Part shown: in pieces, positions 138 through 34,476 of the stretch
Position numbering within the stretch: position 1 is the stretch's first letter
How the letters are laid out: each line of letters opens with the position of its first letter
NCBI GenBank assembly: GCA_017555665.1
Contig: JAFZFY010000215.1
Span: 1-34,476, forward strand
DNA: 34,476 nucleotides
Direction: 5' to 3'
Source of the DNA: Pseudomonadota bacterium
Lineage (GTDB): Bacteria; Myxococcota_A; Bradymonadia; UBA4248
Position numbers and translations under genes: made by a program
Notes under the pieces: generated by a model
What the model was told of the DNA's origin: nothing
Databases searched by the model: none
What the model saw: the letters and a program-made list of their open reading frames with translations, nothing else

Positions 138-163
138 GCGCGGCGTATCGCAGATAGCCGCGC
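138..163. repeat. Bulged-hairpin REP-like repeat
   Basis: GCGCGGC-G-TATC-GCA-GATA-GCCGCGC; same core as the copies at 15339, 15380, 18481, 18519, 24411, 24446, 28652, 34420 and 34451. Confidence 0.75.
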
Positions 164-190
164 CATATAAAGACGTTCTGCGGAACGCCT

Positions 191-895
191 CTAAAGCTCC
201 TGGCAGTTGCAGAGGCCATCGGTGCATACGGCAAGCGTGCCGGGTTTGAATTTCTCGCAGATTTTGGTGCATCTGGCTGCGGCATCCTCACCGGTGCAGG
301 CGAGTGTTTCGCGGCTGAGGCACTGGCATTTGTCGTTCTGGCACACGGACATGACGGCGCCGATGGCTTGGCAGGATAGTTCGCAATCCGAGTCGGCCTG
401 GCAGTCGTTTGACTGACATTCGCATTTGTTGTTCTGGCATATCGGTGTCGAATTGGGCTTGTAGAGCTCGCAAACCGCGGTACATGCGCTTGAGATGCCG
501 GTGCCTTCGCAGGCAAGTTCGATATCAGAGGCGCAGGCGCAGATGCCGTCATGACATGCGGTCATCGGGGCATCCGGGCATTTGGCGGCACAATCGGAGG
601 CGGCGTTGCATTCACGCGCCTGACATTCGCAGTATCCCTCAAGGCAGACGCCCTTTGTGCCGGGCTGGAAGGAATTGCAGATGGCTGTGCAGTTGTCTGT
701 TTCGGCATTTCCGGAACAGGCGAGAGCTTCTTTGGAGACGCATCTGCAGGCGTTGTTTTGGCAGTCGAACATGATCGTGTTGAGATCGTAGGCACGGCAG
801 AAGAGCTCGCAGTCCGCTTTTGCTTTGCACAGGCTGTTGTCGTCACAGGCGGTCAGAGATACGAGAAGGAGTAGGCAGAGGGAGAGTTTTTTCAT
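191..895 (-). CDS. Cys-rich lipoprotein with six tandem CSab (defensin/scorpion-toxin-like) 6-Cys modules
   Basis: ATG at 895 gives MKKLSLCLLLLVSLTAC (signal peptide II, lipobox LTAC); the mature part has 36 Cys in six C-xn-C-x3-C-xn-C-x4-C-x-C units. The ORF track start at 940 overlaps the dynamin stop. Confidence 0.8.
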   Translation of the reverse strand: MKKLSLCLLLLVSLTACDDNSLCKAKADCELFCRAYDLNTIMFDCQNNACRCVSKEALACSGNAETDNCTAICNSFQPGTKGVCLEGYCECQARECNAASDCAAKCPDAPMTACHDGICACASDIELACEGTGISSACTAVCELYKPNSTPICQNNKCECQSNDCQADSDCELSCQAIGAVMSVCQNDKCQCLSRETLACTGEDAAARCTKICEKFKPGTLAVCTDGLCNCQEL

Positions 896-936
896 AGGGT
901 CTTGGAATGGCTCGAATGATATGCCCATTCGGGGAT

Positions 937-2526
937 TCATTTGTAAAGTCCGGCTTCGATCTCGCTCCAGTCAGTGCGCGGCGATTCGAGGAGCCGTGCC
1001 GCAATATTCTGGATGTGTTCGGTGAGCTGGTGACAGTGGTCGCGAATCAGTTCGTTGAGGAGGTTGTTTTGATGATCCAGCTCGTCTTTGAAGGCTTTTC
1101 TGAAGGCGTCTGCGCGTCTGTGTATATCGTTTTCGGCCATGTTTCGGAGCACTTCACGGCGTGGGCGTTCGGCGCGTCCGGAGAGCAGGATGGGGACTGG
1201 CGTGAAGAACATGGCGACGTTGTCTGTCGTGTCAAACGCGCCGGTTCGGGCGGGGCTTTTGAGGAGGAGGCAGATGCGCCTGAGATGGAACTCAAAGCGC
1301 GGGATGTCAGGGGATTGCGGCATGAGTTCATGCCAGAGCGCGTGCATGAGCGTGTCTAGGCTGTCGATCACGAGATGATAGGTGTTTTTGCCGAATTCCA
1401 GAAATGCGTCGCGGATAAAGTCTTCGAGGTATTTTTCGACATCTTCGAGGAAGACCTTGTTGATTTCGCGCGGAATCGCTTTGAGGAAAGCCTGTTCGAA
1501 CCGGTCTGTATCGTCGGATACGAGCTGTTTGAGGTGTGCCGTGTGCTGGGTGATCCGATGCAGGATGTCGGCGATGATGAGGGGCGTCATCTGCCTGTCG
1601 GTGGCGGGACTGGCTTTTTTGAGGCTTTTGAGCGCGGGGGGATCGAGCTGTTCGATGGCGCGATAAAGCGGATAAAAGCCTTCGAGTGATGCCTGAAGCT
1701 GGCCTCCGAGCTTGTTGATATATCTGGCTTCATAGGACTGTTTTCCAGCCGTGATGTCGCTTGCGATGCGCGCCTTGAGGGCGTTCCAGTCGCCCGAGCG
1801 TTTCTTTGAGGAGATCATGTAGAACGGTTCGTTCGCGATCGTAAGCGCAAGGCATGATTCCGTATAGTGGCAGACTTCGAGGTGTTCGTCGTCGTCCAGA
1901 CGGTCGCATTTGTTGATCACGATCGCGCGCGATTGTGCGGGGAGCGCGTCTGTGATCTGGGAGAGGATATCCTGTTCCGTATGTGTCATGGGCTGGTTGG
2001 CATCGAGCAGGAACAGCAGGAGGTCGGCTTTTCGCACATACCGGTTGAGAAAGCTTTCCCGAACAAAGGATGCCTCATTAAGTCCCGGTGTGTCGATGAA
2101 CACGCATTCTCTGTCAAATGCTTGAGATTCGAGGTAAATGTCGAGTCTGTCAGCCGATTTTTTGATGAGGATATCCGGGAGTTTGGATCGTGAATCTCGC
2201 CGCCAGTCTGACCATTCCCATGTGGCGATCTTCTCAGAGCCGGCCGATGATGTCACGAGGCGGTGTTCCGCGCCGAAATGCAGGAACGTGTCGATCTGGG
2301 TTGTCGGGGTGACGCCGTATGGGAGGATATCTTCACCGATGAGCGCGTTGATCAGTGAGGATTTTCCGTGGTTGAATTCCCCCAGGAATATCACGTGTAT
2401 CGCCCTGTTCTGGAGCGTTTGCTCAAAGTCTTGCTGCCATTGGGCGGCAAATCGGGAGAGCCCCATTTGATGCGCGATCGAGAGGAGCTCGTTGATATGA
2501 TCGGGTATCAGGATGTCAGCTGACAT
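937..2526 (-). CDS. Bacterial dynamin-like GTPase (Dynamin_N domain)
   Basis: G1 GEFNHGKSSLIN, G2 GVTPTT, G3 DTPG, G4 NKCD; helical C-terminal half. Confidence 0.85.
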   Translation of the reverse strand: MSADILIPDHINELLSIAHQMGLSRFAAQWQQDFEQTLQNRAIHVIFLGEFNHGKSSLINALIGEDILPYGVTPTTQIDTFLHFGAEHRLVTSSAGSEKIATWEWSDWRRDSRSKLPDILIKKSADRLDIYLESQAFDRECVFIDTPGLNEASFVRESFLNRYVRKADLLLFLLDANQPMTHTEQDILSQITDALPAQSRAIVINKCDRLDDDEHLEVCHYTESCLALTIANEPFYMISSKKRSGDWNALKARIASDITAGKQSYEARYINKLGGQLQASLEGFYPLYRAIEQLDPPALKSLKKASPATDRQMTPLIIADILHRITQHTAHLKQLVSDDTDRFEQAFLKAIPREINKVFLEDVEKYLEDFIRDAFLEFGKNTYHLVIDSLDTLMHALWHELMPQSPDIPRFEFHLRRICLLLKSPARTGAFDTTDNVAMFFTPVPILLSGRAERPRREVLRNMAENDIHRRADAFRKAFKDELDHQNNLLNELIRDHCHQLTEHIQNIAARLLESPRTDWSEIEAGLYK

Positions 2527-3640: not shown

Positions 3641-3641
3641 G

Positions 3642-15293: not shown

Positions 15294-15338
15294 GGCGCGT
15301 TCTGGCAGTGAGAAGCCGTGATATACGGCATAAAAAGG

Positions 15339-15415
15339 GCGCGTTCGTATGGAGGCGTAGCCGAAATAGAACGCGCGAACCGCCGCGTATCGGGGCATCG
15401 TCCCGATAGCGGCGG
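15339..15415. repeat. Pair of bulged-hairpin REP-like repeats
   Basis: GCGCGTTC-G-TAT...ATA-GAACGCGC (15339-15376) and CCGCCGC-G-TATCGGG-N7-CCCGATA-GCGGCGG (15380-15415). Confidence 0.7.
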
Positions 15416-15532
15416 CAAAAAATCACGCTTGAGAAAAGAATACACGCGGGAACGCTCGCAGGGCGACAGGGTCGCCGTGAGGGGGCGTGCGTTTGTCTCA
15501 AATCGCCTTGAAAATGGCGGTTTTGGCGCGGA

Positions 15533-18453: not shown

Positions 18454-18480
18454 GGTTATCCTTGTGCAGTGTGTTTTGGG

Positions 18481-18550
18481 GGCGCGGCTATCGGCGTGAA
18501 ACGCCGATACGCGCGCCATGTGCGGCTATCCCTGCGGGATACGCCGCACA
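18481..18550. repeat. Pair of bulged-hairpin REP-like repeats
   Basis: GGCGCGGC-TATCGGCGT-GAA-ACGCCGATA-C-GCGCGCC (18481-18517) and TGTGCGGC-TATCCC-TGC-GGGATA-C-GCCGCACA (18519-18550). Confidence 0.78.
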
Positions 18551-18565
18551 AGACTGTATGCCGTA

Positions 18566-18595
18566 AAGATATGCGCGTGCGGCTGTCGCCGTCAA
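18566..18595 (-). promoter_or_regulatory. Possible sigma70 promoter for the M16 operon
   Basis: Minus strand TTGACG-N18-TATCTT, about 110 bp upstream of the ATG at 18453. Confidence 0.3.
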
Positions 18596-18722
18596 TCATG
18601 CGCAAAGGGCTTGTGCGCAGGGGGGATGCCCCCTCGAAAGCTCGCCACGTCCGAAGATGGCACGCGTGATATCGGGCAGATGCCTGGGGGGGCGTACACC
18701 GTGGGGGCGACGGGATGCAAGC

Positions 18723-18932
18723 TCAGGATTCTTTCATGGCATTGAGCTTCGCGAGTGCCTCGTTGATCTGGACCCCCGTGCTGATGAGCTTGTTCTGGCA
18801 TTTTGCGATGAGCGCGGTGGCTTCGTTCACCAGCTTGAGCATGTTGTCGATATCGCAGTCTTTTTGTCCGAGCAGCTCGACGATCTGCTGGATACGCTGG
18901 ATATCCTGTGCGTAGGTTGATTTTTCTTCCAT
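18723..18932 (-). CDS. xseB: Exodeoxyribonuclease VII small subunit
   Basis: TYAQDIQRIQQIVELL...IDNMLKLVNEATALIAKCQNKL pattern; 69 aa; downstream of xseA. Confidence 0.85.
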   Translation of the reverse strand: MEEKSTYAQDIQRIQQIVELLGQKDCDIDNMLKLVNEATALIAKCQNKLISTGVQINEALAKLNAMKES

Positions 18933-19110
18933 CTCTTGTCTCTCTGGCGCGGCATGTGTGCCGCAGATAGAGGCCCCGGCGTGGGGCCGTGTGTATAAGG
19001 AGAAGTGTGTCGCGTGTGGCAGTGTTTGGTTTGTTCAGGCGCAGTATTTTGAGAAGCCGGAAGCATCCTGGCCGTGTCGAGTGTCGTTGCGGGGGATGGT
19101 CGTTTCGAGG

Positions 19111-20946
19111 TCACGTGGGCTCGACGGTTTCGACCGTGACGCGCAGCTTGCCGTCTTTGAGGCGTATGATCAGCGTGTCGTTTTGCCTGATGTTTTCGAC
19201 GGAGGAGACGGGGCGGCCGTCTTTGTCGGAGACAGCGGCGAAGCCACGGACGAGCAGGGATTCAGGGCTGAGCTGCCTGACGGATCGCGAGAGCTGTTCG
19301 AGCGTGTCATGCGCGCGCTGCGTGCTGTCGCGGAGGCGTTCAGCGGACATGGCTGCGAGCGCGGCACATTGGCTCCGGGCGATCTGCAGCCGCTGTTCGG
19401 CGTTGTTCTGTAGCGCGGTCGAGAGGCGTTCGAGTTCGTGTGACTGATCGAGGCAGATGCCTGCGCTGAGGGACGCGATGCGCTCGCGCATGCAGGAAAG
19501 CTCGCGTTCCTGCATGTTCTGATATTTTGTTGCAAGGCTTTGCAGTTCGTTCGCGCATGATCTGAGGCGGCTGTCGTGCATGTGGAGGGAGGACTGCACC
19601 CCGGCGGTGATCTGTGTGCGCAGGTCAAAGAGCGTCTGGCGCGCGGTATCTCTGTTTGTGGCGATCTGGTTGCGGCACTGCTCGGAGAGCGTCTGCAGCC
19701 TGAGTTCGGCAGTTTCGAGCTTCTGACGCGCCTGGTTGGTCACGCTGTCTCTGGATTTGGCGAGGATTTGCGAGAGCGTGTTGAGGCGGTCGATCAGGTG
19801 GTGGACGACCATGCTCGGCGTGGAAAAGCTGAGCGCGATCTCGTCGATGATGGTGGTATCCTTGTCGTGGCCGATGCCGCAGATGAACTTGAGCGGGGAG
19901 GTCGCGATATACTCGGCAATGCGTATGTTGTTGAAATCCCAGAGGTCTGCGGAGCTTCCGCCGCCGCGCACGATGATGCCGTAATCGAAATTCTGCGGCC
20001 CGATCTTGTCGAGCAGCGCGAACGCCTCCATAAAGGTCGATTCGAGCTTGTCGCCCTGGAGCGTGACTTTGAACAGCGTGATATCGAAATTATAGCCGCT
20101 TGATTTGAGATTTTCGTAAAAATCCCCTTTTCCGGCCGCAGTCTCGTTTGTAAACACCGCGAGTCTGAGCGGCAAAAACGGCATCTGAAGCGCGCGGTTC
20201 TGTTGAAAAATGCCTCGCTTGATGAGTTCCGCGCGTATCAGCTCTCGCTGGCGCAGTTTTTCCTCGGCGGCGAACGTCTCGTCCACTTCCTCGATGTAGA
20301 AGGAGACCTGGCCTTTGGAGGCGTAATAGTCGAGCTTGCCGAGCACCCGAATCGCTTCCCGGTTCTTGAAATCGCGCAGTTTTCCAGCACGTATGCGTTC
20401 CTGGAACAGCTTGAATTTGTTGCCCCAGATGACGGCGTTGATCTTGTCTGCCTTTGAAGAGACGAGCGCCTCTGTGGACTCAGCCTGTGTCTCCGAGTAA
20501 TGCAGCAGTGGGAAATAGACATGTCCGCCGTCGCTGATCTTGAAATCGGTGACGACGCCTTTGAGCCAGATGGCATCGGGGAAAGCGGTTCGGATGTTCG
20601 CGCGGATGACATCCGAGAGTTCCTTGACGGTGAAGGTTTTGACTTCGGTGTTCGGGCGTGCTCTGGCGATCCTGTATTCGGTCTGGGCAGGCGCGGGCAG
20701 CCCTGTAAACTGCTTGTAACCGGCGCTGTCTAGCGTGGCCTTGATGCTGTCGAATGTGGCCTGAATGACTTGCCAGTACCGCTTGATCGTGCCGGTCTGG
20801 CTGTTCTGCTTTTCAAAGTATCTGGCGTCTGTGCGATCCATGATGTTCAAAATGCCGGGATCGTCCGTGTAGGCGACGAACCAGGCGTTGCTTTTGAACA
20901 TGTAGAACTTGTCTTGGTTTTCGTAGATTTTCGTTGTATCCGTCAT
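19111..20946 (-). CDS. xseA: Exodeoxyribonuclease VII large subunit with N-terminal extension
   Basis: FTVKELS, IWLKG, GHVYF OB fold; IIVRGGGS..DLWDFN, GIGHDKD, STPS; C-terminal LSPESLLVRGF; start at ATG 20946. Confidence 0.92.
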   Translation of the reverse strand: MTDTTKIYENQDKFYMFKSNAWFVAYTDDPGILNIMDRTDARYFEKQNSQTGTIKRYWQVIQATFDSIKATLDSAGYKQFTGLPAPAQTEYRIARARPNTEVKTFTVKELSDVIRANIRTAFPDAIWLKGVVTDFKISDGGHVYFPLLHYSETQAESTEALVSSKADKINAVIWGNKFKLFQERIRAGKLRDFKNREAIRVLGKLDYYASKGQVSFYIEEVDETFAAEEKLRQRELIRAELIKRGIFQQNRALQMPFLPLRLAVFTNETAAGKGDFYENLKSSGYNFDITLFKVTLQGDKLESTFMEAFALLDKIGPQNFDYGIIVRGGGSSADLWDFNNIRIAEYIATSPLKFICGIGHDKDTTIIDEIALSFSTPSMVVHHLIDRLNTLSQILAKSRDSVTNQARQKLETAELRLQTLSEQCRNQIATNRDTARQTLFDLRTQITAGVQSSLHMHDSRLRSCANELQSLATKYQNMQERELSCMRERIASLSAGICLDQSHELERLSTALQNNAEQRLQIARSQCAALAAMSAERLRDSTQRAHDTLEQLSRSVRQLSPESLLVRGFAAVSDKDGRPVSSVENIRQNDTLIIRLKDGKLRVTVETVEPT

Positions 20947-21105
20947 AATTCTGCCCACGCGCAAAACGGCGCGATTCTATCTGATTTATCCCCAAAGGAC
21001 AATTTGAAATGCCGAGTCGTCGGAGACGGGTCATGGGACACGCGAAGGCGCAGCAGAAGGGGATTGCGCTGATTCGGATATCGAAACAGGCGTTGCAGAT
21101 TTCAT

Positions 21106-21277
21106 GTTACGACTCAGCCCACAGATGTGTCTGAAGTATGGAGAGCATTGCGGACAGGCAGTAGGCAGTCGTTAGCCGCACAGGAACTTTTGCCTTTAGG
21201 GGATATAAATATTCGACAGCTTATAGGCGTGAAAGGTGTTGAAATGCTCATGATTTAGAGGGCGGCTGAGTAGTAAC
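21106..21277. mobile_element. MITE-like non-autonomous element, 172 bp, 14-bp TIR, 8-bp target-site duplication
   Basis: Left end GTTACGACTCAGCC (21106-21119) and right end GGCTGAGTAGTAAC (21264-21277) match at 13/14 as inverted repeats; both are directly flanked by GATTTCAT (21098-21105 and 21278-21285). Confidence 0.8.
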
Positions 21278-21390
21278 GATTTCATATTGCGTAGAAATAT
21301 GGGGATATGATAAGCTAATCAAAGTTGTATAGGTTGCGGCTGGTAATGGCCGTATTTTTATTTTTCACGAGAAAGGAAGTTTAGAGGTAC

Positions 21391-22035
21391 ATGAGGCGGC
21401 GTCAGACAGGCCCCGGCGTTCCGGGTGAGGAGAATCAGTACAGAATCAACCATCAGATCCGCATCGCGCAGATCTTGGTCATTGGCCCTGAAGGAGACAA
21501 GCTTGGCGTGATGAGCCCGGACGAGGCACGTTCGATCGCAGCAGATCACGGGCTTGATCTTGTGGAAGTTGCGCCAAACGCGAAACCGCCTGTCTGTAGG
21601 ATCATGGATTTTGGCAAGTTCAGATACGAACAGGCCAAGAAAGCGGCGAGTTCTAAAGCGGCGAAAGTCGATTTGAAAGAGCTTCGCCTGCGCCCGAAGA
21701 CGGATGATCACGACATGGAGACGATGGTGCGCAAAGCGAAGGGCTTTATCGCCCACGGCGATCGCGTGCGCCTTGTGATGCGCCTTCGTGGCCGCGAGCA
21801 GTCGCATGCCGAGCTTTGGCTCGACAAGATGGTCGAGATCATCGCGATGTTCAGCGATTGTGCGTCTGTCGCGCAGCCCGCAAAAGTCGAGGGCAAGATG
21901 ATTACAGCCACGATTGAGCCGATGAGCAACGCCGAGAAAGAGAAGGCCGATAAGGCGGCGAAGGCTGAAAAGGCGGACAAGCCCGCCGAAAAGCCTGAAA
22001 AAGCAGACAAGCCTGAGAAAGCAGAAAAGAAGTGA
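21391..22035 (+). CDS. infC: Translation initiation factor IF-3 with K/A/E/D-rich C-terminal tail
   Basis: RINHQIR, LDLVEVAPNAKPPVCRIMDFGKFRYE, KELRLRP, LRGRE motifs. Confidence 0.96.
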   Translation: MRRRQTGPGVPGEENQYRINHQIRIAQILVIGPEGDKLGVMSPDEARSIAADHGLDLVEVAPNAKPPVCRIMDFGKFRYEQAKKAASSKAAKVDLKELRLRPKTDDHDMETMVRKAKGFIAHGDRVRLVMRLRGREQSHAELWLDKMVEIIAMFSDCASVAQPAKVEGKMITATIEPMSNAEKEKADKAAKAEKADKPAEKPEKADKPEKAEKK

Positions 22036-22077
22036 CACGGTCTTTTTTGCAGCCGTGTGTCTGCACTGAACACTCGT

Positions 22078-22105
22078 AAAAACGGCGCGTTACGCGCCGT
22101 TTTTT
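22078..22105. terminator. Bidirectional Rho-independent terminator between convergent infC and rarA
   Basis: AAAAACGGCGCGT-T-ACGCGCCGTTTTT(T), with A and T tracts on both sides. Confidence 0.85.
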
Positions 22106-22154
22106 GTTCGTGTGTATGGCCAGGCTGGGGCGCGGCATGCACCATGCCCGGCAC

Positions 22155-24362
22155 TCAGCTGCCGGGGGCAGGCTTGGTATAGGTGGCAATGAGGAGGCAG
22201 GTCGGCCAGTTGCAGGTCTGGCCTCTCAGTTTGAGCTGCGCCCACTGCGAGATCGCTTCGCATGAGGCTTCGGATAAGCATTGACCGAGCCTGTCGATGT
22301 AACTGGGGGCTGCGTTGCTGTGCTTGAACCAGTGCGCGAATATCGAGGGCGTGATCGTCAGCTTGCCGGAGAGCTCGATCTTTCGGATGTGCATGTCGAG
22401 CTGCGCTTCGCGGCATGCCTGTTCGAGCTTTTGGGCCGTGAATTGCTGCGTTTTGTCTTGTGCGATGATCGATTCTTCCGCGTTTTTCCACGCCGTGACG
22501 AGGTGGTTGTCGAGCTTTCCGGTCGCGTCTGCCAGGCTGTAGATGCGCGGCATGTCGGCGGGCAGGATGTTGGAGAATGCGATTTTTCCGCAAGGCGCGA
22601 GCCTGTCTCGCGCGGCGCGGAGCAGGGCGGCCAGGTCATCGCAGGTGTGCAGATGGTTTCGCCCGATGATTGCGTCGAATTCGATATCGCCGAAAGCATC
22701 GAGGGACGATGCGGAGATCGCGTCTGTGCGCGCGACGGTCGCGCGTTCGAGTTCCGGGCGTTTTGACATGAGCGATTCAAAGCTGTCGGCCATTTCTGAA
22801 GGCGTGATGACGGAGAAAACGCCGCCGTCCGGGCATCTTCTCAAGGCCTCAAAGGAGAGCAGGCCGGAAGCCGCGTTGAGGTCGAGTATCCTTGCGTTCG
22901 CTTGGGGGGCGATGAAGTCAAAGATCTCGGTGCGCACGAGTTCCGCGCGTGCGGCTGCGCCATCGAACGTGCGCCCGATCCACTTTTCTTCGGAGGATGA
23001 CTGCGCATCGAGCGCGCGCTGTTCTTCAAACAGGGCGAGCTGCGCTTCCCGGTTTCGCGACACCTTGGCGGCGATGGTCGCTTCATAGCCGCTGTCTGCG
23101 GGATGATAGAAAATGCGCCCCTGGAGGCCGTTTGGCAGGTATTGCTGTGCGACCCAGTGGTCTCGATAGGCATGCGGATAGAGATAGCCCAGGCCGTGTC
23201 CCAGGCCGTCTTTGTCGCGCGAGGCATCCTTGAGCGGGTCAGGCACGTCGTAAGAGGATTCCTTTTGGACGACGGAGAGCGCGTCAAAGAAAGCCATGGA
23301 GGAGTTGGATTTGGGGGCCGTGGAGAGATAGAGCGTGGCATGTGCGAGGTGATACCGCCCTTCGGGGAGCCCGATGCGGTCGAACGCCTGTGCGCAAGAC
23401 TCGACGACGGAAACGGCATGCGGATCAGCCATGCCGATATCTTCGCAAGCGCTGATGAGCAGTCTTCTAAAAATAAAGTTTGGCGATTCGCCGGCCTGGA
23501 CCATCCTCGCCAGCCAGTAGAGTGCGGCATCTGGGTCGCTGCCACGGATGCTCTTGATGAAAGCGCTGATCGTGTCGAAATGCGCGTCGCCTTCTTTGTC
23601 GTATAGGACGGCGCGTTGCTGTATGGATTCTTCGGCGACTTCGAGCGTGATTTCAATCTGTCCCGAATCGTCTGGCGGCGTGGTGACGACGGCGAGTTCG
23701 AGCGCGTTGAGCAGGGCGCGGGCATCGCCGTTCGCGACGTTGACGAGATGCGCCATCGCGTCTTCGCGCAGGATGACGTTGAACAGCCCGAAGCCGCGAT
23801 CCGGGTCTCTGAGCGCCTGCATGACGATGCCCCGGAGGTCCGCGTCCTGGAGCGGTTTGAGCTGGAAGATCCTCGACCTGCTGACGAGCGCCTTGTTGAC
23901 TTCAAAGTAAGGGTTTTCGGTGGTCGCGCCGATCAGCGTGATCGTGCCGTTTTCGACCCAGGGTAGCAGTGCGTCCTGCTGGCTTTTGTTGAATCTGTGC
24001 ACTTCGTCGACGAACAGGATGCTCTTTCTGCTGACAAGCGTGAAGTTCTGTTTTGCGGTATCGATGGCATCTCGGATGTCCTTGACACCGGCGAGGACGG
24101 CGTTGAGCGAGAGGAATTTGGCGCGGGTCGTGTTGGCGATGATCCTGGCGAGCGTGGTTTTTCCAGTGCCCGGCGGTCCGTAGAAGATGAGGCTTGAGAG
24201 TTGGTCGGCTTCGATGGCGCGTCGCAGCAGCCTGCCTTTTGCCAGGATATGTTCCTGTCCCCAGAATTCGTCGAGCGTTCGCGGCCGCATGCGAGCGGCG
24301 AGCGGTTCGTGTGCGTTGTCGGGTTCTGGCCTTGGGGCGTGGCGGTCAAAGAGAGATGGCAT
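22155..24362 (-). CDS. rarA: Replication-associated recombination protein RarA/MgsA fused to a C-terminal SAM-methyltransferase-like domain
   Basis: PLAARMRP, GPPGTGKTT, FVDEVHRFNKSQQDALLP, GATTENP, ISAFIKSIRGSDPDAALYWLARM, GYLYPH; C-terminal ILDLNAASGLL...FDAIIGRN. Confidence 0.92.
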   Translation of the reverse strand: MPSLFDRHAPRPEPDNAHEPLAARMRPRTLDEFWGQEHILAKGRLLRRAIEADQLSSLIFYGPPGTGKTTLARIIANTTRAKFLSLNAVLAGVKDIRDAIDTAKQNFTLVSRKSILFVDEVHRFNKSQQDALLPWVENGTITLIGATTENPYFEVNKALVSRSRIFQLKPLQDADLRGIVMQALRDPDRGFGLFNVILREDAMAHLVNVANGDARALLNALELAVVTTPPDDSGQIEITLEVAEESIQQRAVLYDKEGDAHFDTISAFIKSIRGSDPDAALYWLARMVQAGESPNFIFRRLLISACEDIGMADPHAVSVVESCAQAFDRIGLPEGRYHLAHATLYLSTAPKSNSSMAFFDALSVVQKESSYDVPDPLKDASRDKDGLGHGLGYLYPHAYRDHWVAQQYLPNGLQGRIFYHPADSGYEATIAAKVSRNREAQLALFEEQRALDAQSSSEEKWIGRTFDGAAARAELVRTEIFDFIAPQANARILDLNAASGLLSFEALRRCPDGGVFSVITPSEMADSFESLMSKRPELERATVARTDAISASSLDAFGDIEFDAIIGRNHLHTCDDLAALLRAARDRLAPCGKIAFSNILPADMPRIYSLADATGKLDNHLVTAWKNAEESIIAQDKTQQFTAQKLEQACREAQLDMHIRKIELSGKLTITPSIFAHWFKHSNAAPSYIDRLGQCLSEASCEAISQWAQLKLRGQTCNWPTCLLIATYTKPAPGS

Positions 24363-24410
24363 GTCGTCTGAAGTCCTGGAGTCGCAGATGTGTGAGGATA
24401 TGTGTGCTCC

Positions 24411-24470
24411 GGCTATCGCGCCGTGGCGCGATACGCCTTCGCGCCGGCGCTATTCTGACGAATACGCGCC
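24411..24470. repeat. Pair of bulged-hairpin REP-like repeats
   Basis: GGC-TATCGCGCC-GT-GGCGCGATA-C-GCC (24411-24437) and GGCGC-TATTC-TGAC-GAATA-C-GCGCC (24446-24470). Confidence 0.78.
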
Positions 24471-24472
24471 AG

Positions 24473-27400
24473 CTATTCGCAGTGGATGCATCCAGCCGGG
24501 CAGGTTTCTGCCGCGTCGCGGCAGTCTTCGGGCGTGGCGTCGTCCCGTATGATCACGGCCTGGCCGTCATCATTGAGGCCGAACGTCTTGTCATCGATAG
24601 AGACGCATGCGCCGCAGGAGAGGCATTTTGCCGTATCGAGCCAGGGGCATTTCTGTGTGCACTCGTCAGGCGCGGGTGCGGTCTGGGGGGCAGCCTCAGG
24701 CATCTGGACTGCCTGAGGCGTTTGTGCGGTCTGGGAGGCAGCCTCAGGCATCTGGACTGCCTGAGGCGCTTGTACGGTTTTGGCATCACGGACCTTTCCT
24801 TCGCCCGCAAGCCCTTCGATATAGGCGGTTTCGTCGCGTATGTCGTCGTTGATATCGGCTGTGTCGTCGGTATCTTGGCCGAGCTGTACGCGCAGTTCAT
24901 GCAGGCATTGTGCGAGCGTGTCTGCCGTGTGCTGGATGAGCTCCTGCGAGGCATCGAAGCGCTGGGCGGCCTGTTCTGCGGCCTTTTGCGTGGCTTCGAG
25001 CTGCTGGAGGTGTCTGGATTCGCGGGCATCTTTGGCAATCTGAAGCTGCGCTTTTGTGGAGAGCGACAGCTCGCGGAGCGTTTTCCATCGCTGCATTCGG
25101 TCGATGCAGGCGTTGACGACATCTCGTGTCATGATGCATTTGCGCAGCGTGGAGTCGACGACACCCCAGATGAACGGGATCTGCGGCTTGTCGAAAGACG
25201 GGGATTTGAGGAATTCGCCGATCTCGATGAGCTCGTCGTTCCAAGCGTCGTTGGGAAGGATGCGGAAATACTTGTGGTAGCCGGGTTCGAGTGCGAGTGC
25301 GTGTGCGAACGTGAAGGTGCCGGGCATCTGTTTGGTGGTGCCGTCGACATCGATATAGGAGAACTGGCAGGTGGGCCAGACCTGGTCGATCTGCGGATTT
25401 TCGTCTACATTGAATCGTTCGACACGGGTTTCGCCGATACTCGGATCATACTGGAACATGGGTGCCGTGCGCGCGTAATGCGCGGCTTCGAGCTGGACCC
25501 GTGCGGGCAGCCGCCATGACCACGTGGGGCATGCGACGACGGTGATGGCGGGGCGAAGCAGGCGGTTCATGCGCGTGAGCGTCGCGACGAGATGTTCGGG
25601 GCGAGCAAGCGAGGATTGCGCGACAAAAGCCTCCCGGAAGGCGGTCGCGAGGTAGCTGAAGCCGGGATCGTAGTTGGAGACGCCGGCGCTCAGATCGCCG
25701 CCCATCGTTTTGGATGTCGATTCGAAGGTGAGCGCGACGATGGGTTTTCCTGCGCGTATCAGGCGTGACAGCGGCGTGAGCTGCGCATAGATCCTGTCGG
25801 TGGTTTCGGCGATGCAGATGACGGGCAGGAGCCTGAGCTCGTCTTCGGAGAGATCCTGCCATGTAAACTGTTCCAGGATATCGGCGTGATAGACAGGATC
25901 GTAGGCGTTATCGATGTCGAGCCGTGCCATGCGCATGGCTTTGAACGCCTCGACATGCTTCTGGCTGATCGCGTCGAAGAGGCCGGTGGCGACAGCGATC
26001 GGCTCTTCGTGGCAGATGCTCCGGACGCGGTCATAGGAGGTCTTGACCTGTATGTCTGGCGGATAGGTGAAGATGAGGTCGTCGGAGGTGTCGAGATGTT
26101 TGAGGAAGGCTTCGAGTGTGTGCAGGGAGTAGGTCATCCTGCGGATGCGTTCGGGATCATGCTGGATGTGCCCTCTGTGCTGGTGCGCGAGGTCTTTTGA
26201 GATTTCGTGGATATCGAGCAGCCCGCCGGCGGCATCGCCGAAAGCGTCGCTGAGCGCAGATTCGGACATGCCGAAAGGCCCGTAGGCATCATCGAGCCTG
26301 AGCGCTTCGCGCAGCTGTGTGATGAGGCCTCGGATATCGGAGCGCACGTCTCGGATCCTGCTTCGCCGGGCGGCTCGGACGGCGAGCACATAGAGATCGA
26401 GCAGCGTGTGCGGATTGAGCCCGATCAGATAACATTCGTCGGAAAGCGCGGTGATGAAATCGCGCAGGCCGGAGCGGATCACGGGTGAGAAGAAGGGATC
26501 TGAGGCCGTGGCTTCTGAAAGCGCTACATCGAGCAGTTTCTTGGCTGGCGTGATGAGCTGGGTATCATCGGAGATTTTTTCGGCGCAAGCCAGGAATGCG
26601 GCCAGGCATCGTTTGACGGCGTCATCCTCGGAGAGATCGCCGAATTTCATCGCGAGCGCGTGATCCAGACGCTGTGTTTGCAGGGATGGATTGCCGGAGA
26701 TGCGCGTCGCGAGCAGGGGGTAATAGTGTTCAGTGTTGAGCGATTGCAGGTAGGGATTGAGCGCGGCAGGGCGTATGGATAGTCCGGGGAGCGGGTGGTG
26801 ATGCGCGTCTGTGGACTGTCCGCGCACGAAGAAGTTGCGGATAATCGTGCGCCATGTCGAGGCTTCTGCGCGGTTGCGGATGCTGGGCTGCATGCGCGGC
26901 AGCTTGATCTGAGGGGCAAAATATGGGTCGAACTGATCGGAAGACTGGATCGATCGGTCGACTTCGCGGACTTCCTGTGCGCCGGTGAGGAGGCGTGCGA
27001 AGGCATCTTGGGAGAGCAGTCGGTTTTGCAGGATTTTTTCGCTGTCGATGTTCACGCCTGTGTGTGTCTGGACGAGCTTGAGCAGTGCGCCGTGCACGAC
27101 GTAGCAGCCGTATCTGTCTACCGTCCTGTATTCGTCGAGCAGGCTTCCGGCGAGGGAGTAGATGCCGATATGCTTTTTTTCGATAAACGTCTGCATAGCG
27201 GGGCTGAATAGCGGCCAGATGGAGGCTTCTTCGACGCTTCTTCCGAGGACGAGGACGAGCGCGTGCTCGGCGAGGTCATGCAGGATATCCTTGATGTCGA
27301 TGAGACCGGGATGTGAGAGGAACAGGACATCGATGGGGCGTTTTTCGCAATCGGGATGTTCATGTGGGGTATTTTCGAGGCCGAGCGTGCTGATCTGCGG

Positions 27401-28429
27401 GTGCGGGCTTTTGACCTGGAAGGCGGAGAGGCCGTTTGTTTTGCTGAGATACGCGGCGAGATCGAAGAGCAGGCCACGGCTCATCTGACCGCCGGGAGCT
27501 GCGCCAATGACAAGGGGATGGCTGTCTTTGGGGCTTGTGAACGTGATGGCATTTTCGATAACGTCCGGGCTGATCTCGAGTGCGAATGCGATGTCTTCGA
27601 TGGCGGTATCGCCGTGCATGTCGATATAGCGGTATCGTTTATTCGCGAGTGCGTGCGCGAGATGGGCGTGCAGGTCGGACTGCTCGAAGGATTCATTTTC
27701 GTCGAGGATGAGGATCAGCTTTTGGTTGACGAAGCATTCGGTGAAACGTTCGGGGAAAGGCCGGATGACTTTGGGGCAGACGTAGAAAGCTTTTCTGCCG
27801 AGTTTTGCGAGCATTGCGGATAGCGCTTTTGCCTCGTCGATATATCGTCCGGACGTGAAGATGCATACCGCCTGTGTGAGGAAAGCGTCCATTTCCGCGA
27901 TATGCATCGGGATGTCGAACCGATCCTTGAAAGCGCACATGCTTTTCGTGATGGTATCGAGGATGAGTGCATCATCGATCACGTCTCTGTTTTTTGAGCC
28001 GATCGGCGTGATGAAGTCGAGCATCTCCTGTGAGATCATGCGAGCGCCTTCGAGCTTGCTGGCGTGCCTGTCATCGATGGAGCAGAGGCCAGGCAGACCG
28101 AGTTTTGCGGCGACATCATGCGCGATGAGGCAGTGATAGACGGCTTCCTGGGCAGAGGTGGCCTGAAGCTCGAAGGGGAGCTTGATCTGCAGGGGGTCGT
28201 AGGGTTTTCGTTCTCGATGGCAGACGAGTGTGGAGGGCATGGAAGGGAGCGCGAAGTCTGTGTTGTTGTCGCAGAGGAGTGCGGCAGCGCGTTGCCCGAG
28301 CATGGCAAAGCCTTCGGCTTCGGCGACGGAGAGCCTTGCGCCGGAACGGCAGATTAGAGCTTCGGAGATGTTGATGTGCCTGCGCGTGGCACGGACGAGC
28401 CATTTGTCTAGCAGTTCAAATGATTCCAT
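24473..28429 (-). CDS. Degenerate pyruvate:ferredoxin oxidoreductase-like protein with C-terminal ferredoxin domain
   Basis: PFOR-like segments ATSAQEAVYHCLIAH, VIRPFP, IDVLFLSHP, FVAQSSLA, PMFQYDP; C-terminal CLSCGAC...CPAGCI Fe-S motif; GAGG RBS before ATG 28429. Confidence 0.7.
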   Translation of the reverse strand: MESFELLDKWLVRATRRHINISEALICRSGARLSVAEAEGFAMLGQRAAALLCDNNTDFALPSMPSTLVCHRERKPYDPLQIKLPFELQATSAQEAVYHCLIAHDVAAKLGLPGLCSIDDRHASKLEGARMISQEMLDFITPIGSKNRDVIDDALILDTITKSMCAFKDRFDIPMHIAEMDAFLTQAVCIFTSGRYIDEAKALSAMLAKLGRKAFYVCPKVIRPFPERFTECFVNQKLILILDENESFEQSDLHAHLAHALANKRYRYIDMHGDTAIEDIAFALEISPDVIENAITFTSPKDSHPLVIGAAPGGQMSRGLLFDLAAYLSKTNGLSAFQVKSPHPQISTLGLENTPHEHPDCEKRPIDVLFLSHPGLIDIKDILHDLAEHALVLVLGRSVEEASIWPLFSPAMQTFIEKKHIGIYSLAGSLLDEYRTVDRYGCYVVHGALLKLVQTHTGVNIDSEKILQNRLLSQDAFARLLTGAQEVREVDRSIQSSDQFDPYFAPQIKLPRMQPSIRNRAEASTWRTIIRNFFVRGQSTDAHHHPLPGLSIRPAALNPYLQSLNTEHYYPLLATRISGNPSLQTQRLDHALAMKFGDLSEDDAVKRCLAAFLACAEKISDDTQLITPAKKLLDVALSEATASDPFFSPVIRSGLRDFITALSDECYLIGLNPHTLLDLYVLAVRAARRSRIRDVRSDIRGLITQLREALRLDDAYGPFGMSESALSDAFGDAAGGLLDIHEISKDLAHQHRGHIQHDPERIRRMTYSLHTLEAFLKHLDTSDDLIFTYPPDIQVKTSYDRVRSICHEEPIAVATGLFDAISQKHVEAFKAMRMARLDIDNAYDPVYHADILEQFTWQDLSEDELRLLPVICIAETTDRIYAQLTPLSRLIRAGKPIVALTFESTSKTMGGDLSAGVSNYDPGFSYLATAFREAFVAQSSLARPEHLVATLTRMNRLLRPAITVVACPTWSWRLPARVQLEAAHYARTAPMFQYDPSIGETRVERFNVDENPQIDQVWPTCQFSYIDVDGTTKQMPGTFTFAHALALEPGYHKYFRILPNDAWNDELIEIGEFLKSPSFDKPQIPFIWGVVDSTLRKCIMTRDVVNACIDRMQRWKTLRELSLSTKAQLQIAKDARESRHLQQLEATQKAAEQAAQRFDASQELIQHTADTLAQCLHELRVQLGQDTDDTADINDDIRDETAYIEGLAGEGKVRDAKTVQAPQAVQMPEAASQTAQTPQAVQMPEAAPQTAPAPDECTQKCPWLDTAKCLSCGACVSIDDKTFGLNDDGQAVIIRDDATPEDCRDAAETCPAGCIHCE
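24676..24771. repeat. Two in-frame 48-bp tandem repeats, each containing a 10-bp perfect palindrome
   Basis: Units start at 24676 and 24724; each carries GCCTCAGGCA-TCTGGAC-TGCCTGAGGC and encodes PQAVQMPEAA. Confidence 0.85.
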
Positions 28430-28615: not shown

Positions 28616-28683
28616 GCGCCGGCGTATTGAGCGCAGCGAGAAGCCGGCGCTCGCCCGCGTATCGCCGTGGGCGATAGCGGGCG
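28616..28683. repeat. Bulged-hairpin REP-like repeats (one degenerate, one intact)
   Basis: GCGCCGGC-G-TATT...GCCGGCGC (degenerate, 28616-28650) and CGCCCGC-G-TATCGCC-GTG-GGCGATA-GCGGGCG (28652-28683). Confidence 0.72.
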
Positions 28684-28876
28684 TCCCGAAAAATGCGCCT
28701 TGGCGGCCTGGCGTCGCTTGTCGCGATTGCTGAACTTCGTGTATCGTCTCGTTTACGATAGAAGTGGAAAAAACGAGTGAGATGGGTTACACTGGGAATG
28801 TTGTGTGTCGTTCGGATACTGAATCGTTTGAGGATGCATGCGGTATCTGGCTGCGCGAGAAGCAGGATAGTATTGG

Positions 28877-30877
28877 ATGTTTCAACGATATGGGCTTTTT
28901 CCTGGCTATACGATCCAGGAAAGATTTGACTCGCCGCGTTATTACGAGAGATTTCTTGCGACGGAGAACGCAGATCCGCGTAATTGGTGTGTGATACGCT
29001 GTCTGAACAAGGAGCTGGCGGGCACGGCAGAGCTCAGGCTGTGTTATCAGGACGCGTGCCGTCATTATGCGCATTATCAGTTGGACGGCCTGATCCCCGT
29101 TCGTGAGATGGGGACGAGCCGTGCCTACGGATTTTATATCGCCTATGCGTATGAGTTTAGCTCGCTATCGATAGGAGAGATATCGGCGCTGAGCCAGCAT
29201 CACAAGCTGAATATGAGCCCGGCGTTTATGATGTCTGTGCTGTTGGATGCGGTTCGTATTCTTGATGTGGCGCATGCGAACAAGCTCGAACATTTTGGCG
29301 TGATCCCGCCGAATATCATCGTGTCGCCGAATGGTGATGTGTATGTGAAGGGATTTGTGGAAGTGGCGATGCGCCGGCGGTACCATTTCGAGACGGAGAT
29401 GCTTGAGAAGTTTGACGCGCCGGAATGGCGTCGTCATGAGGCGGTGGGCGTGGCGAGCGACGTGTATGCGATCTCGGCGTTCCTCTATCAGAGCCTGACG
29501 AACGAGCTTCAGCCGGACGAGTGGGAGCCGCGCTGGATGGGGATGATGGATGTCCTGAACCGCTCGGGTGTGCCTGGCGAGTCGCTGACGGCGATGATGT
29601 CGTTTTTTCAGCACACGCTTGCGGAGCGTCCGCAGCAGAGGTTTTCGAGCTATAGCCAGCTTGCCCAGGCGTTAGAGCGTCTGCTGCATGAATTTGGCGG
29701 GTATCAGCCGCGCGAAGTGCGCGCGGAGATATTGAGCGGTCAGTTTGATGATTTTCCGCCGCGCATGCGAGTGGAGAACTGCGAGTTCCGAAGCGACGTG
29801 ATCAATCTGATCACGGGCGAGCTGCCGTGTATATCGGCGGAGATGCCGGAGCCGAGCGAGGAGCAGGCTGTATTGACGGGACTGACGGGGATGCAGCGGC
29901 GAGAGGCTCCGTCCGAGTCATCAGGCGGCAGCGGCGGCGATATCAGTTTTGAAGAGACGCTGACATCCTCGCCGTTGGAGGGTATCGAGACGCGCGTGCT
30001 TCACCGCAGTTCCAACAGTTTCCGGACGATCAACCCGAATCTTCGTGCATCGATCCATGCGTCTCCGCTGGAGGTCTTGGCGCGTTCTCGCTATCAGATC
30101 CTGGACGAGCTTGGGTCTGGCGGCACGGGCACCGTGTACAAAGTGCTGGACACGACGCTGACGGAAGTGCTGGCGCTCAAGGTATTGAAGCCGGAGCTCG
30201 TGTCGGATGCGGCGTGGCTGCAGCGGTTCAAGCGCGAGCTCAAGATCACGCGCGACTTGGAGCATGCGTATATCTTGCCGGCGTATCATCTCGAACAGTT
30301 GGAAGGGCTGTATTTCTTTACGATGCGCTATATCGACGGGAAGAATCTGAGCGAGCATCTGCATGAGTCATCGCTGCCGCTGATGATGAGCTTGCGTATA
30401 TTGACGCAAGTGGCGGAGGCGCTGGTGGCGGCGCATGACCGAGGTATCATTCATCGGGACCTGAAGCCAGCGAATATCATGGTCGAGGCCGGGACGTACC
30501 ATCCGTATCTGATGGATTTTGGGATCGCGAGCACGCTCGATATGCCGTCTCTGACGATCGAAGGGCAGGGGATCGGGACGCCGTTTTATATGGCTCCCGA
30601 GCAGTCCCGAGGCGAGCAGATCACGATTCAGGCGGATGTGTATTCGTTTGGGGTGGTGTGTTACGAGTGTTTTACGCAAAAGCTGCCCTTTACGGGGGCG
30701 ACAGCGGTGGCGATCTATACGGCGCAGCAGTCGGGTATATTTGAGCCGATCCGAGATCTGAACCCGATGGTGCCGCCCGCGATCGCGAAGCTCGTGGAGA
30801 GCTGTCTTGCGCCGCAGGCGCAGAACAGGCCGGCCTCGATGCGCGTGGTTCTGGATGGCTTTGGGCGAATGGGATAA
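28877..30877 (+). CDS. Hanks-type Ser/Thr protein kinase with N-terminal pseudokinase domain
   Basis: C-terminal domain has LGSGGTGTVY, ALKVLK, HRDLKPANIM, DFG, GTPFYMAPE, DVYSFG; N-terminal copy is degenerate (HFGVIPPNI, KGF, APE, SDVYAIS); no transmembrane segment seen. Confidence 0.92.
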   Translation: MFQRYGLFPGYTIQERFDSPRYYERFLATENADPRNWCVIRCLNKELAGTAELRLCYQDACRHYAHYQLDGLIPVREMGTSRAYGFYIAYAYEFSSLSIGEISALSQHHKLNMSPAFMMSVLLDAVRILDVAHANKLEHFGVIPPNIIVSPNGDVYVKGFVEVAMRRRYHFETEMLEKFDAPEWRRHEAVGVASDVYAISAFLYQSLTNELQPDEWEPRWMGMMDVLNRSGVPGESLTAMMSFFQHTLAERPQQRFSSYSQLAQALERLLHEFGGYQPREVRAEILSGQFDDFPPRMRVENCEFRSDVINLITGELPCISAEMPEPSEEQAVLTGLTGMQRREAPSESSGGSGGDISFEETLTSSPLEGIETRVLHRSSNSFRTINPNLRASIHASPLEVLARSRYQILDELGSGGTGTVYKVLDTTLTEVLALKVLKPELVSDAAWLQRFKRELKITRDLEHAYILPAYHLEQLEGLYFFTMRYIDGKNLSEHLHESSLPLMMSLRILTQVAEALVAAHDRGIIHRDLKPANIMVEAGTYHPYLMDFGIASTLDMPSLTIEGQGIGTPFYMAPEQSRGEQITIQADVYSFGVVCYECFTQKLPFTGATAVAIYTAQQSGIFEPIRDLNPMVPPAIAKLVESCLAPQAQNRPASMRVVLDGFGRMG

Positions 30878-31460: not shown

Positions 31461-31461
31461 T

Positions 31462-32316: not shown

Positions 32317-32491
32317 GTGGCGTTGTTCGTTATGTGTAGGTGAAAGTGCGGCATTGTGTGCGCATTGCCGCATGAATCCTTGAGATGGCGATATTTTTGG
32401 TTGTTTCAGACGGGCAAAAAGCCCTATAAGAGAGAATTGGGTTTACCTGCGCATCTGCGCTTTTTTTAACTCTATTTTAGGAGCAGGGAAC

Positions 32492-33229: not shown

Positions 33230-33248
33230 GCCGAATTTGTGTATGTCT

Positions 33249-33273
33249 AAGCCCCCATCCGGGGGCTTTTTTT
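33249..33273 (+). terminator. Rho-independent terminator
   Basis: AAGCCCCC-ATCC-GGGGGCTT followed by TTTTT. Confidence 0.85.
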
Positions 33274-33295
33274 GTGTCTGTTTCGAGTGCTTTGT

Positions 33296-34408
33296 ATGTT
33301 TCATAAATTTTGGCCGATATTTATATTTTTAACGGGCTGTGCCTCTGCATCTTTGCCGGCAACGAATGTGCCTGAAACGCCCGTGGAGGCGCTTGATCAC
33401 GAAGCCGATTCGATGATCATCCCAGAGCATGCGCAACGCACGCCATCGGGTTATGCGTATATGACGCTTCATCCGGGCGGCGAGAAGCCGTTGCCGACGG
33501 ATGCGGTTCGCGTGCATCTCAAGGTGCTCACGGTCGAGGGGACGGTCGTCGATGAGAACGACGCGACGCTTGCGGTCTCGCATTCGACACCTTTTTTTGA
33601 GGAATTTTTGCCGCAGATGGCGATTGGCGAGAAGATTCGTGTGTGGGGTGACCAGGCGCGGATCTGGGAAATCGAGATGCTGTCGGTCGATGCGCATTTT
33701 CGGGCACCCGAGGATGTGTCTGCGCCGCCTGCGGATGCGCTTTCGCTGCCGGAAGCGGCTGGCGTGCGCTATCGCGTATTAGATGCCGGTCATGGGGAAA
33801 AGCCGAAGCCCGGGCAGGCGTTGCGCGTTCAGGCGACGCGCTGGAAGGATACTGGCGAGATCTTGGAGAGCAATCGCGACAGCAGGGGAATGGTCATTTT
33901 TTTGACGGAGGAGGCGACACAGGTCGATCCGGTGCATGATGCCGTGCTGCGCGAACTCAACGAGGGCGCGCATGCCAGGCTTTGGATTCCTGCGGAGATG
34001 CTGGGGGCTGGGTTCGGGATCACGGAAGATCTTTGGCTGGTGGAATACCTGCATGGGCTGGATGTGCCGACGGAACTGGCAGCACCTGCCGATGCGCAGA
34101 TCGTCGAACCCGATGCCGCGTGGATGCGCTTTGAAACGCGCACGGGCGCAGAAAATCTAAAGGAGAACGATGCTGTGGCCGTCGAGATGACCTGCTGGAA
34201 CGGCGCGACTGGTGCGCTTGTAGATTCGAGCATTGTCCGCGATAAACATGATATTATGGAAATCAAGCCTGCCCTCGGTGTTTGGCAAAAGATCATGATG
34301 GCGGCAGCGCCGGGGGATATATTTATGACCTGGATCAAAACATCGGCGCTTCCTGAACAGGTGAATATGGATCTTGTGTGTCGTGTAAAGGTATTTGAAA
34401 AAGTATAG
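33296..34408 (+). CDS. Lipoprotein with three divergent FKBP-type PPIase-like domains
   Basis: Lipobox FLTGC; repeated FKBP-like segments (TPSGYAY..LHPG..MAIGEKIRVW; GVRYRVLDAGHGEKP..LNEGAHARLWIPAE; GALVDSS..PGDIFMTWI). Confidence 0.72.
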   Translation: MFHKFWPIFIFLTGCASASLPATNVPETPVEALDHEADSMIIPEHAQRTPSGYAYMTLHPGGEKPLPTDAVRVHLKVLTVEGTVVDENDATLAVSHSTPFFEEFLPQMAIGEKIRVWGDQARIWEIEMLSVDAHFRAPEDVSAPPADALSLPEAAGVRYRVLDAGHGEKPKPGQALRVQATRWKDTGEILESNRDSRGMVIFLTEEATQVDPVHDAVLRELNEGAHARLWIPAEMLGAGFGITEDLWLVEYLHGLDVPTELAAPADAQIVEPDAAWMRFETRTGAENLKENDAVAVEMTCWNGATGALVDSSIVRDKHDIMEIKPALGVWQKIMMAAAPGDIFMTWIKTSALPEQVNMDLVCRVKVFEKV

Positions 34409-34415
34409 TTTGGGG

Positions 34416-34476
34416 GCGCGGGCTATGCCTGCGGCATACGCCCTGCGCGCGCGGCTATTGCTTCGCAATACGCCGC
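34416..34476. repeat. Pair of bulged-hairpin REP-like repeats
   Basis: GGGC-TATGCC-TGC-GGCATA-C-GCCC (34420-34443) and GCGGC-TATTGC-TTC-GCAATA-C-GCCGC (34451-34476). Confidence 0.8.

Follow-up and report, generated by a model that had tools for sequence, protein, structure and literature searches.

The window analysed here is a 34,476-nt stretch of contig JAFZFY010000215.1 from a Pseudomonadota draft assembly (GCA_017555665.1), and its subject is a family of short hairpins that lie between the genes, most of them in pairs (Table 1). Ten clear copies carry the core C-TAT...ATA-C-G, which was read directly in 10/10. Each follows the same plan: a GC-rich outer arm whose last base is C is followed by TAT, a short inner arm, also GC-rich, and a small loop; on the return side come the matching inner arm, ATA, an unpaired C and the matching outer arm, which starts from G. 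In four of the ten, the plus strand reads as the reverse complement, with an unpaired G before TAT; the two versions are referred to below as the C-bulge and G-bulge forms. An anchored scan of both strands (CTAT..ATACG) returned exactly these ten copies and one stemless match in a coding region (29148–29174), which is a chance match. Folded as single-stranded DNA, nine of the ten have a one-base bulge in their minimum-energy fold, and the fold z-scores of the set run from −2.3 to −5.4. The initial annotation of this DNA had listed the same ten copies, with the same core, as well as two degenerate ones; all twelve are found where it placed them, the degenerate pair with the defects and weaker z-scores given in the table. 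Its description of the copies as mostly paired in one orientation also holds, with four same-orientation pairs of clear copies and a further pair that joins the degenerate copy at 28616 to the clear copy at 28652.

Table 1. Hairpin copies in the window. MFE, minimum free energy; z, fold z-score; G006, genome of a congeneric species.
Feature	Coordinates	Strand	Remarks
Hairpin copy, single	138..163	-	G-bulge form on + strand; outer stem 7 bp, inner stem 1 bp past TAT/ATA, loop 3 nt; MFE -10.6 kcal/mol with 1-nt bulge
Hairpin copy, first of head-to-tail pair	15339..15376	-	Outer stem 8 bp, bulged G, TAT/ATA, imperfect inner part; covariance model E 8.2e-5; ortholog retained in G006
Hairpin copy, second of pair	15380..15415	-	Covariance model 45.1 bits; G006 ortholog retained with altered loop and stem
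Hairpin copy, first of pair	18481..18517	+	C-bulge form on + strand; imperfect outer-stem register; MFE structure has 2x2 internal loop; 5' half of core decayed in G006 ortholog
Hairpin copy, second of pair	18519..18550	+	Perfect outer 8-bp and inner 3-bp stems; model match; compensatory changes in both stems of G006 ortholog
Hairpin copy, first of pair	24411..24437	+	Outer stem 3 bp, long inner stem; retained in G006
Hairpin copy, second of pair	24446..24470	+	G006 ortholog exists, both triplet arms mutated
Degenerate copy	28616..28650	-	Outer stem, bulged G and TAT kept; ATA arm lost; z -1.4; near-identical in G006
Hairpin copy adjoining degenerate copy, divergent intergenic region	28652..28683	-	Model match; one compensatory outer-stem change in G006 ortholog
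Doubtful relative, TAT/ATA hairpin	28734..28765	-	AT-rich outer stem, 3-nt bulge; z -1.9; unmatched by anchored core scan
Hairpin copy, first of pair	34420..34443	+	3' of gene ending 34408
Hairpin copy, second of pair	34451..34476	+	Last base is contig end

The stems of these copies differ in sequence and remain paired. In a MAFFT alignment of the ten, 93.6% of cells pair, compared with 72.3 ± 3.3 in shuffles, of which 0/500 reach that value; both sides have changed in 9/13 pairs, and in a control in which the partner was slid by 1–3 columns pairing falls to 20–50%. Across the whole window, Rfam gave no match at the gathering score. An ordinary bidirectional terminator, composed of an A-run, a hairpin and a T-run without the TAT core, is present at 78–115, so canonical terminators coexist with the hairpin family.

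Genome-wide abundance and anatomy

The window is contig C153 of genome G000, a 4.12-Mb draft of 416 contigs (53.6% G+C, 99.26% complete). A descriptor requiring a perfect inner stem of ≥2 bp past the triplet, a perfect outer stem of ≥4 bp and a loop of 2–16 nt identified 768 perfect copies in this genome, 353 with a 3′ bulged C and 415 in the reverse-complement arrangement with a 5′ bulged G. With the same descriptor, other bulge bases gave 0–19 hairpins per class and bulge-less stems gave 27, and five whole-genome dinucleotide-preserving shuffles contained 0–1 in the two real bulge classes. The looser anchor CTAT-N7-17-ATACG occurs 1,422 times, compared with 3–28 for three control patterns, and 1,376 of the anchored cores have full flanks. 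A hexamer-based caller assigned 3,059 genes to 86.5% of the genome; 742 of the 768 perfect copies lie outside these calls, and 18 of the 26 inside them are ≤150 nt from a called start, in calls that are possibly over-extended. The 185 anchored cores inside gene calls are probably mostly chance matches, which puts the family at about 1,200 members. The initial annotation had called the family dispersed and intergenic, and had named three outcomes that would speak against it: a frequency no higher than in shuffled sequence, an equal frequency within coding sequences, or a match to a described family. The shuffle counts, the location of the copies and the Rfam search in the window each came out the other way.

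Contig ends lie ≤20 nt from a perfect copy in 38/832 cases and ≤300 nt in 121/832, the end of the window itself included, and the repeats probably fragment the G000 assembly. In practical terms, such units interrupt the assembly of these genomes and would escape k-mer repeat finders.

The two stems are free in sequence, and the junction between them is fixed. The 768 perfect copies are 24–38 nt long and comprise 685 different sequences, with 314 different outer arms and 131 different inner arms; the base preceding TAT is C in 758. Covariation was assessed on the 1,376 cores anchored on CTAT/ATACG alone, a set in which stems were not pre-selected. Outer pairs 2–7 are Watson–Crick in 64–83% of these cores, compared with 32–44% expected from column composition, and both G:C and C:G are frequent at each of them; the figure drops to 37% at pair 8 and to 21%, the background, at pair 9, which sets the outer stem at 7 bp. 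Inner pairs 1–3 are Watson–Crick in 75–87% (35–37% expected). When generic two-tier hairpins with a one-base bulge were collected from G000, 500 of the 696 were of the C|TAT|bulge-C type, and compensated alternative triplets were near absent (TAC 4, AAT 2). A scan with the triplet left free recovered mainly the same hairpins in shifted register; the tally used is one by Hamming distance, with 394 exact cores and 26 one letter off. For the TAT/ATA triplet and the bulged base, it is the sequence itself that is fixed, beyond pairing alone, and the view that variable, complementary stems surround an invariant core extends from the window to the genome.

The inner stem consists of 2–6 bp of free sequence closed by C:G around a loop of 3–4 nt, and the spacing of the conserved halves varies with inner stem and loop, from 7 to at least 17 nt. 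The loops are polar. On the strand with the bulged G, GNA makes up 228/478 triloops, compared with 13 on the opposite strand, and the closing pair is C:G in 449/478; GNNA makes up 116/148 tetraloops, compared with 3. Very high stability as DNA has been described for d(GNA) loops with a matching closing pair and for GCGNAGC/GCGNNAGC mini-hairpins (PMC3201870, PMC13037366). Mismatches counted by hairpin strand are symmetric, with no strand-specific wobble. Outside the hairpin, no flanking position exceeds 46% for one base (745 copies).

Arrangement and conservation among relatives

The 1,376 anchored cores fall into 865 clusters, comprising 478 single units, 302 doublets and larger arrays of up to 7 units. 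The pairing in one orientation noted in the window is a property of the whole genome: 300 of the 302 doublets are of this kind (152 + 148), and 2 are inverted. With core-to-core gaps of 14–18 nt, neighbouring outer stems of 7 bp abut, 0–4 nt apart. In mixed arrays, C-forms precede G-forms in 15 and follow them in 2. Tandem duplication of a unit with its spacer accounts for some arrays, and 45 sequences recur unchanged on different contigs, where their flanks are unrelated; copies are at times gained, lost, tandemly duplicated and dispersed. Orientation relative to contig GC skew revealed no link to the replication strand (170:213 compared with 171:187).

The distribution of the family, which the initial annotation had proposed to compare among relatives, was surveyed with the pattern GCTATS-N5-15-SATACGC and reversed-pattern controls. 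G000 contains 565 matches, ten other genomes of its genus 101–694 each, three genomes of a second genus 145–295 and a third genus 121. The two remaining genera of the bacterial family have 4 and 9, and every other genome searched has 0–9, with similarly low counts for the reversed-pattern controls. Beyond the family, the pattern was run on 24 class-level relatives and on 401 genomes, from 254 genera, that sampled the phylum. Carriers comprise 15/17 genomes of one bacterial family and 0 of ~390 other genomes drawn from across the phylum. With up to 150 candidates scored per genome, a covariance model derived from the ten copies of the window gave at least 39–120 matches per genome at E ≤0.01 in the same 15 carriers and no match in the two non-carriers of the family.

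Orthologous regions from five congeners, with 67–83% DNA identity in genes, were mapped by their flanking coding sequence. Hairpins are kept at the same place and in the same orientation in 4/4 hairpin-bearing intergenic regions mapped to G006. The region upstream of an M16 peptidase pair has kept its copy in 4/4 mapped species, with unrelated stems; region 24291–24472 has no hairpin in two more distant species. For six hairpin-free regions, the core was present in 0/15 mapped orthologs. In the G000–G006 alignments of the four regions, hairpin columns are identical in 221/269 positions (82%), compared with 402/1,117 (36%) of other intergenic columns, and several stem differences are compensated on the opposite arm. 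Judged from these comparisons, the hairpins are shown to be held at orthologous sites by purifying selection between species, and are more than mobile copies.

Several further observations concern the surroundings of the hairpins. G000 also contains another palindrome family with a better conserved sequence, AGACGTGTC-(GTG/ACG)-GACACGTCT, for which there are 114 regular-expression matches, 97 of them exactly 20 nt long; 36 lie ≤30 nt from a TAT hairpin. The strict expression has no match in the window, where degenerate look-alikes stand at ~111–137 and 168–191, beside copy 138–163. Some TAT hairpins are embedded in yet another repeat, a third one, which centres on a GGGGGAAG..CTCCCCC hairpin and has shared flanks (G000 contigs C109, C206, C288 and C125), which suggests composites of the mosaic kind seen in bacterial interspersed mosaic elements (BIMEs). 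Among the genes of the window, 22155–24290 (minus strand) encodes an MgsA/RarA-type AAA+ protein, apparently fused to a methyltransferase domain, and 24473–28429 (minus strand) encodes a 1,318-aa protein whose sole Pfam domain is a C-terminal single-cluster ferredoxin; the look-alikes of the latter are pyruvate:ferredoxin-oxidoreductase-like clusters, which at scores of 0.87–0.89 are leads only. In a public run labelled as bovine gut metagenome, short contigs match coding parts of window 15000–24999 (12 pieces placed, 8 at ≥99% identity), which hints at an animal-gut habitat.

Proposed folding as DNA, transcript ends and a neighbouring gene family

The reading that we favour, at roughly even odds (a probability of about 0.5), is that the hairpins form a lineage-restricted family of units of the repetitive extragenic palindrome (REP) class, with ~770 perfect and ~1,200 total copies in 4.1 Mb, whose folded-DNA junction is read by a protein. 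The unit would fold as single-stranded DNA, either as a hairpin or as one arm of a cruciform, and a putative protein would recognise the C-TAT/ATA-C-G junction with its flipped base by sequence and structure alike. Folded DNA is favoured over RNA because orientation relative to genes is near-random, mismatches viewed in the mRNA sense show no G-U excess (G-T 56, A-C 45), and the GNA and GNNA loops belong to the G-bulge strand. In tandem regions the C-bulge form is sense in 295 cases and antisense in 242, in agreement with the earlier claim that orientation is independent of transcription.

A number of points weigh against this reading. No partner protein was found. The hairpins favour gene 3′ ends: among intergenic regions of ≥30 nt, a perfect copy is present in 88/307 convergent regions, compared with 238/1,343 tandem and 63/363 divergent ones, and, of the hairpins that come first after a stop codon, 240 have the C-bulge form in sense, compared with 176. 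T-tailed copies in tandem regions are sense-oriented by 56 to 8, which makes an RNA role likely for at least part of the family. Two G006 orthologs, those of 18481–18517 and 24446–24470, carry mutated cores, so cores decay in place and not every copy is constrained. Finally, the assembly is a 416-contig draft with 4% contamination, and its gene calls come from a crude in-house hexamer caller.

The strongest competitor, which we consider unlikely on balance, is an element acting at the RNA level, in which the hairpins would serve as stabilisers or terminators of transcript 3′ ends and the junction would be read by an RNA-binding protein or RNase. In addition to the enrichment in convergent over divergent regions, copies of both orientations are closer to the upstream stop than to the next start (medians of 57 and 83.5 nt, compared with 152 and 144 nt), and the order of forms in mixed arrays, C before G in 15 of 17, is the one expected between convergent genes. 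The likeness to intrinsic terminators is that of a GC-rich hairpin after genes, with a subset that has a T-tract and the correct orientation. The initial annotation had reported no U-tails, which is correct for the copies of the window and fails genome-wide, where TTTT directly follows the C-bulge form on its 3′ side in 93/745 copies, about one in eight, and a T-rich tail follows the C-form in 120/936 intergenic cores. This minority is oriented like intrinsic terminators. The remainder of the family differs from terminators in its near-random orientation and in its invariant internal motif and bulge. Several points speak against an RNA-level element: the side and base of the bulge switch with orientation, yet both orientations are common in tandem regions; G-U-compatible mismatches are not in excess in the mRNA sense; the GNA and GNNA loops occur on the strand that is slightly more often antisense; and the 63 divergent regions with copies are promoter-side. 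Orientation and mismatches, taken with the polarity of the loops, argue against specific recognition in RNA and fit DNA that folds, while a minority of copies would serve as terminators.

A second, rather improbable alternative ties the hairpins to an expanded gene family. G000 contains 41 gene calls, in five clusters, that combine AAA-ATPase_like and PDDEXK_9 (DUF1703) domains, with 38 PF08011 matches (examples are C216:4314–6128, C291:372–2186 and C133:161–1810). The hairpins would then be the substrate of a PD-(D/E)XK nuclease, in a REPtron-like arrangement, or a preferred insertion site of the gene units themselves. A core lies ≤250 nt upstream of 20/32 DUF1703 genes, compared with 459/2,765 of all genes and 9/54 for six other multi-copy families, and cores stand on both sides of 6/21, compared with 67/2,355 and 1/36, respectively; the paralogs were partly copied along with their flanks, and the counts are consequently not independent. 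The DUF1703 genes are preceded by a conserved ACTCGCCATTT-type motif, and the hairpins stand immediately upstream of it; in another genus (g3) a core was present ≤300 nt upstream of 6/17 DUF1703-type open reading frames, a figure that stands without a g3 background rate for comparison. The family is neither necessary nor sufficient for the hairpins, however, since neither PF08011 nor PF09820 is matched in carriers G007 and G014, and non-carrier G013 has four PF09820 (AAA-ATPase_like) matches; other non-carriers have 5–7 PF08011 matches. DUF1703 was accordingly rejected as a required partner and retained as a positional lead, and the hairpins may simply be landing or insulation points of DUF1703 gene units. 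The function of DUF1703 is given as unknown in PMC6387759, which describes expansions to ≥10 copies as uncommon. Other expanded families in G000 are DUF285 (23 calls), DUF6273+Stig1 (11) and Ser/Thr kinases in two clusters (12 and 10), none of which is enriched for upstream hairpins.

REP elements and other structure-read hairpins

The TAT hairpins share several traits with REPs and BIMEs: palindromic units of 20–40 nt in hundreds of copies, nearly all extragenic and clustered, with sub-variants that differ by complementary stem changes, and with a stem irregularity. Reading of folded single-stranded DNA is well established for REPs. Accounts of the REP class describe recognition of the folded single strand, including the bulge in its stem, a terminal GTAG or CGTC tag, genes for REP-associated tyrosine transposases (RAYTs) flanked by repeats, and dimers that are mostly inverted and rarely head-to-tail (PMC3733652, PMC8266576). 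The E. coli enzyme TnpAREP is reported to need the stem irregularity or bulge (PMC8266576), and CGTC-tagged REPs, too, are reported to have no transposase of their own (PMC3733652). The TAT hairpins depart from this pattern in several respects. Their conserved sequence is internal, at the stem junction, and GTAG or CGTC, sought in either orientation within 8-nt flanks, was found at ≤25/745 copies for each tag. Their doublets are head-to-tail, unlike the inverted dimers of REPs, BIMEs and REPINs (paired, inverted REP sequences). Their stems are far more variable than those of REPs and show no excess of G-T pairing.

The search for a RAYT gene flanked by these hairpins, suggested by the initial annotation, found none in G000 or among the genes read in three relatives. 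Y1_Tnp, the RAYT domain, has no match in G000; among the 14 other carriers, full-length matches are present in 9 and a weak partial one in one more, with none in G005, G007, G009 and G012. The RAYT-like genes read in G006 (L088), G001 (L089) and G016 (L090) encode 149–181 aa and have on one or both sides another palindrome, GCGGCT(TCC/GGA)AGCCGC, which is present once in G000; no well-formed TAT hairpin stands directly beside them. This palindrome and the RAYT-like genes of the relatives look like a separate REP/RAYT pair, and RAYT was rejected as the partner of the TAT hairpins. It is accordingly very unlikely that the family is a canonical REP mobilised by a RAYT, a Y1 HUH transposase, that is merely missing from the draft: its short, palindromic, high-copy and extragenic units, the irregular stem required by E. 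coli TnpAREP (PMC8266576) and the full-length Y1_Tnp matches in most other carriers would suit such an origin, but the domain is absent from a 99.26% complete genome and from four other carriers, the RAYT-like genes read in three relatives are flanked by a different palindrome, and the tags are rare at copy ends. The proposal of a REP-like family therefore stands in part: the hairpins behave like REPs, and the tag and a cognate RAYT are missing. Without a tag or cognate RAYT, and with head-to-tail dimers, the evidence supports the view that the TAT hairpins work like REPs but fall outside the tagged, RAYT-linked families.

Double-stranded operator sites for a dimeric regulator that reads two half-sites are the least probable explanation, as the imperfect inverted repeat of the conserved halves and the independence of orientation suit duplex binding, but half spacing varies from 7 to ≥17 nt, duplex binding gives no reason for stem covariation in flanking and intervening sequence, and a regulator with ~1,200 sites, the majority of them behind genes, would be out of the ordinary.

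Two other systems share parts of the design. The TnpA enzymes of IS200/IS605 elements (Y1 HUH) are described as reading single-stranded DNA hairpins with imperfect stems, where they touch bases of the loop and a base that is mismatched or extrahelical (PMC8266576). The TAT units likewise are imperfect hairpins with an extrahelical base but, unlike IS200/IS605 ends, bracket no transposase gene, and the ~1,200 units stand alone or in tandem. An IS200/IS605 tnpA would carry Y1_Tnp, for which G000 has no match; tnpB was not searched for. In integrons, attC sites are 57–141 nt long, are separated by gene cassettes and have AAC/GTT core triplets; their structure is conserved over sequence, short triplets pair at the stem base, extrahelical bases mark the strand, and an array has a single orientation. 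Conserved structure, paired triplets, an extrahelical base and shared orientation within an array recur in the TAT hairpins, whereas the units are much shorter and abut one another, and the triplets are TAT/ATA (500/696 bulged hairpins).

We also raise, more tentatively than the favoured reading, the possibility of a RAYT-independent "junction-coded" system, that is, a new REP-like superfamily with its own reader or mobiliser and with more than 1,000 sites that the host keeps under purifying selection. Its reader, a protein of a type with no previous link to REP-type repeats, would recognise in folded DNA the flipped base beside the fixed T-A/A-T/T-A triplet irrespective of the stem sequence, and could conceivably be a PD-(D/E)XK/AAA protein or a genome-organising factor. 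REP-type elements are widespread, but their spread and function are understood only where a RAYT enzyme and a GTAG tag exist, and the TAT-hairpin family has neither. It offers instead a legible recognition code of free stems, fixed junction and fixed flipped base, carriers and non-carriers within one bacterial family, and conservation at orthologous sites, a combination that makes it testable which protein reads such hairpins and what the hairpins do for their host.

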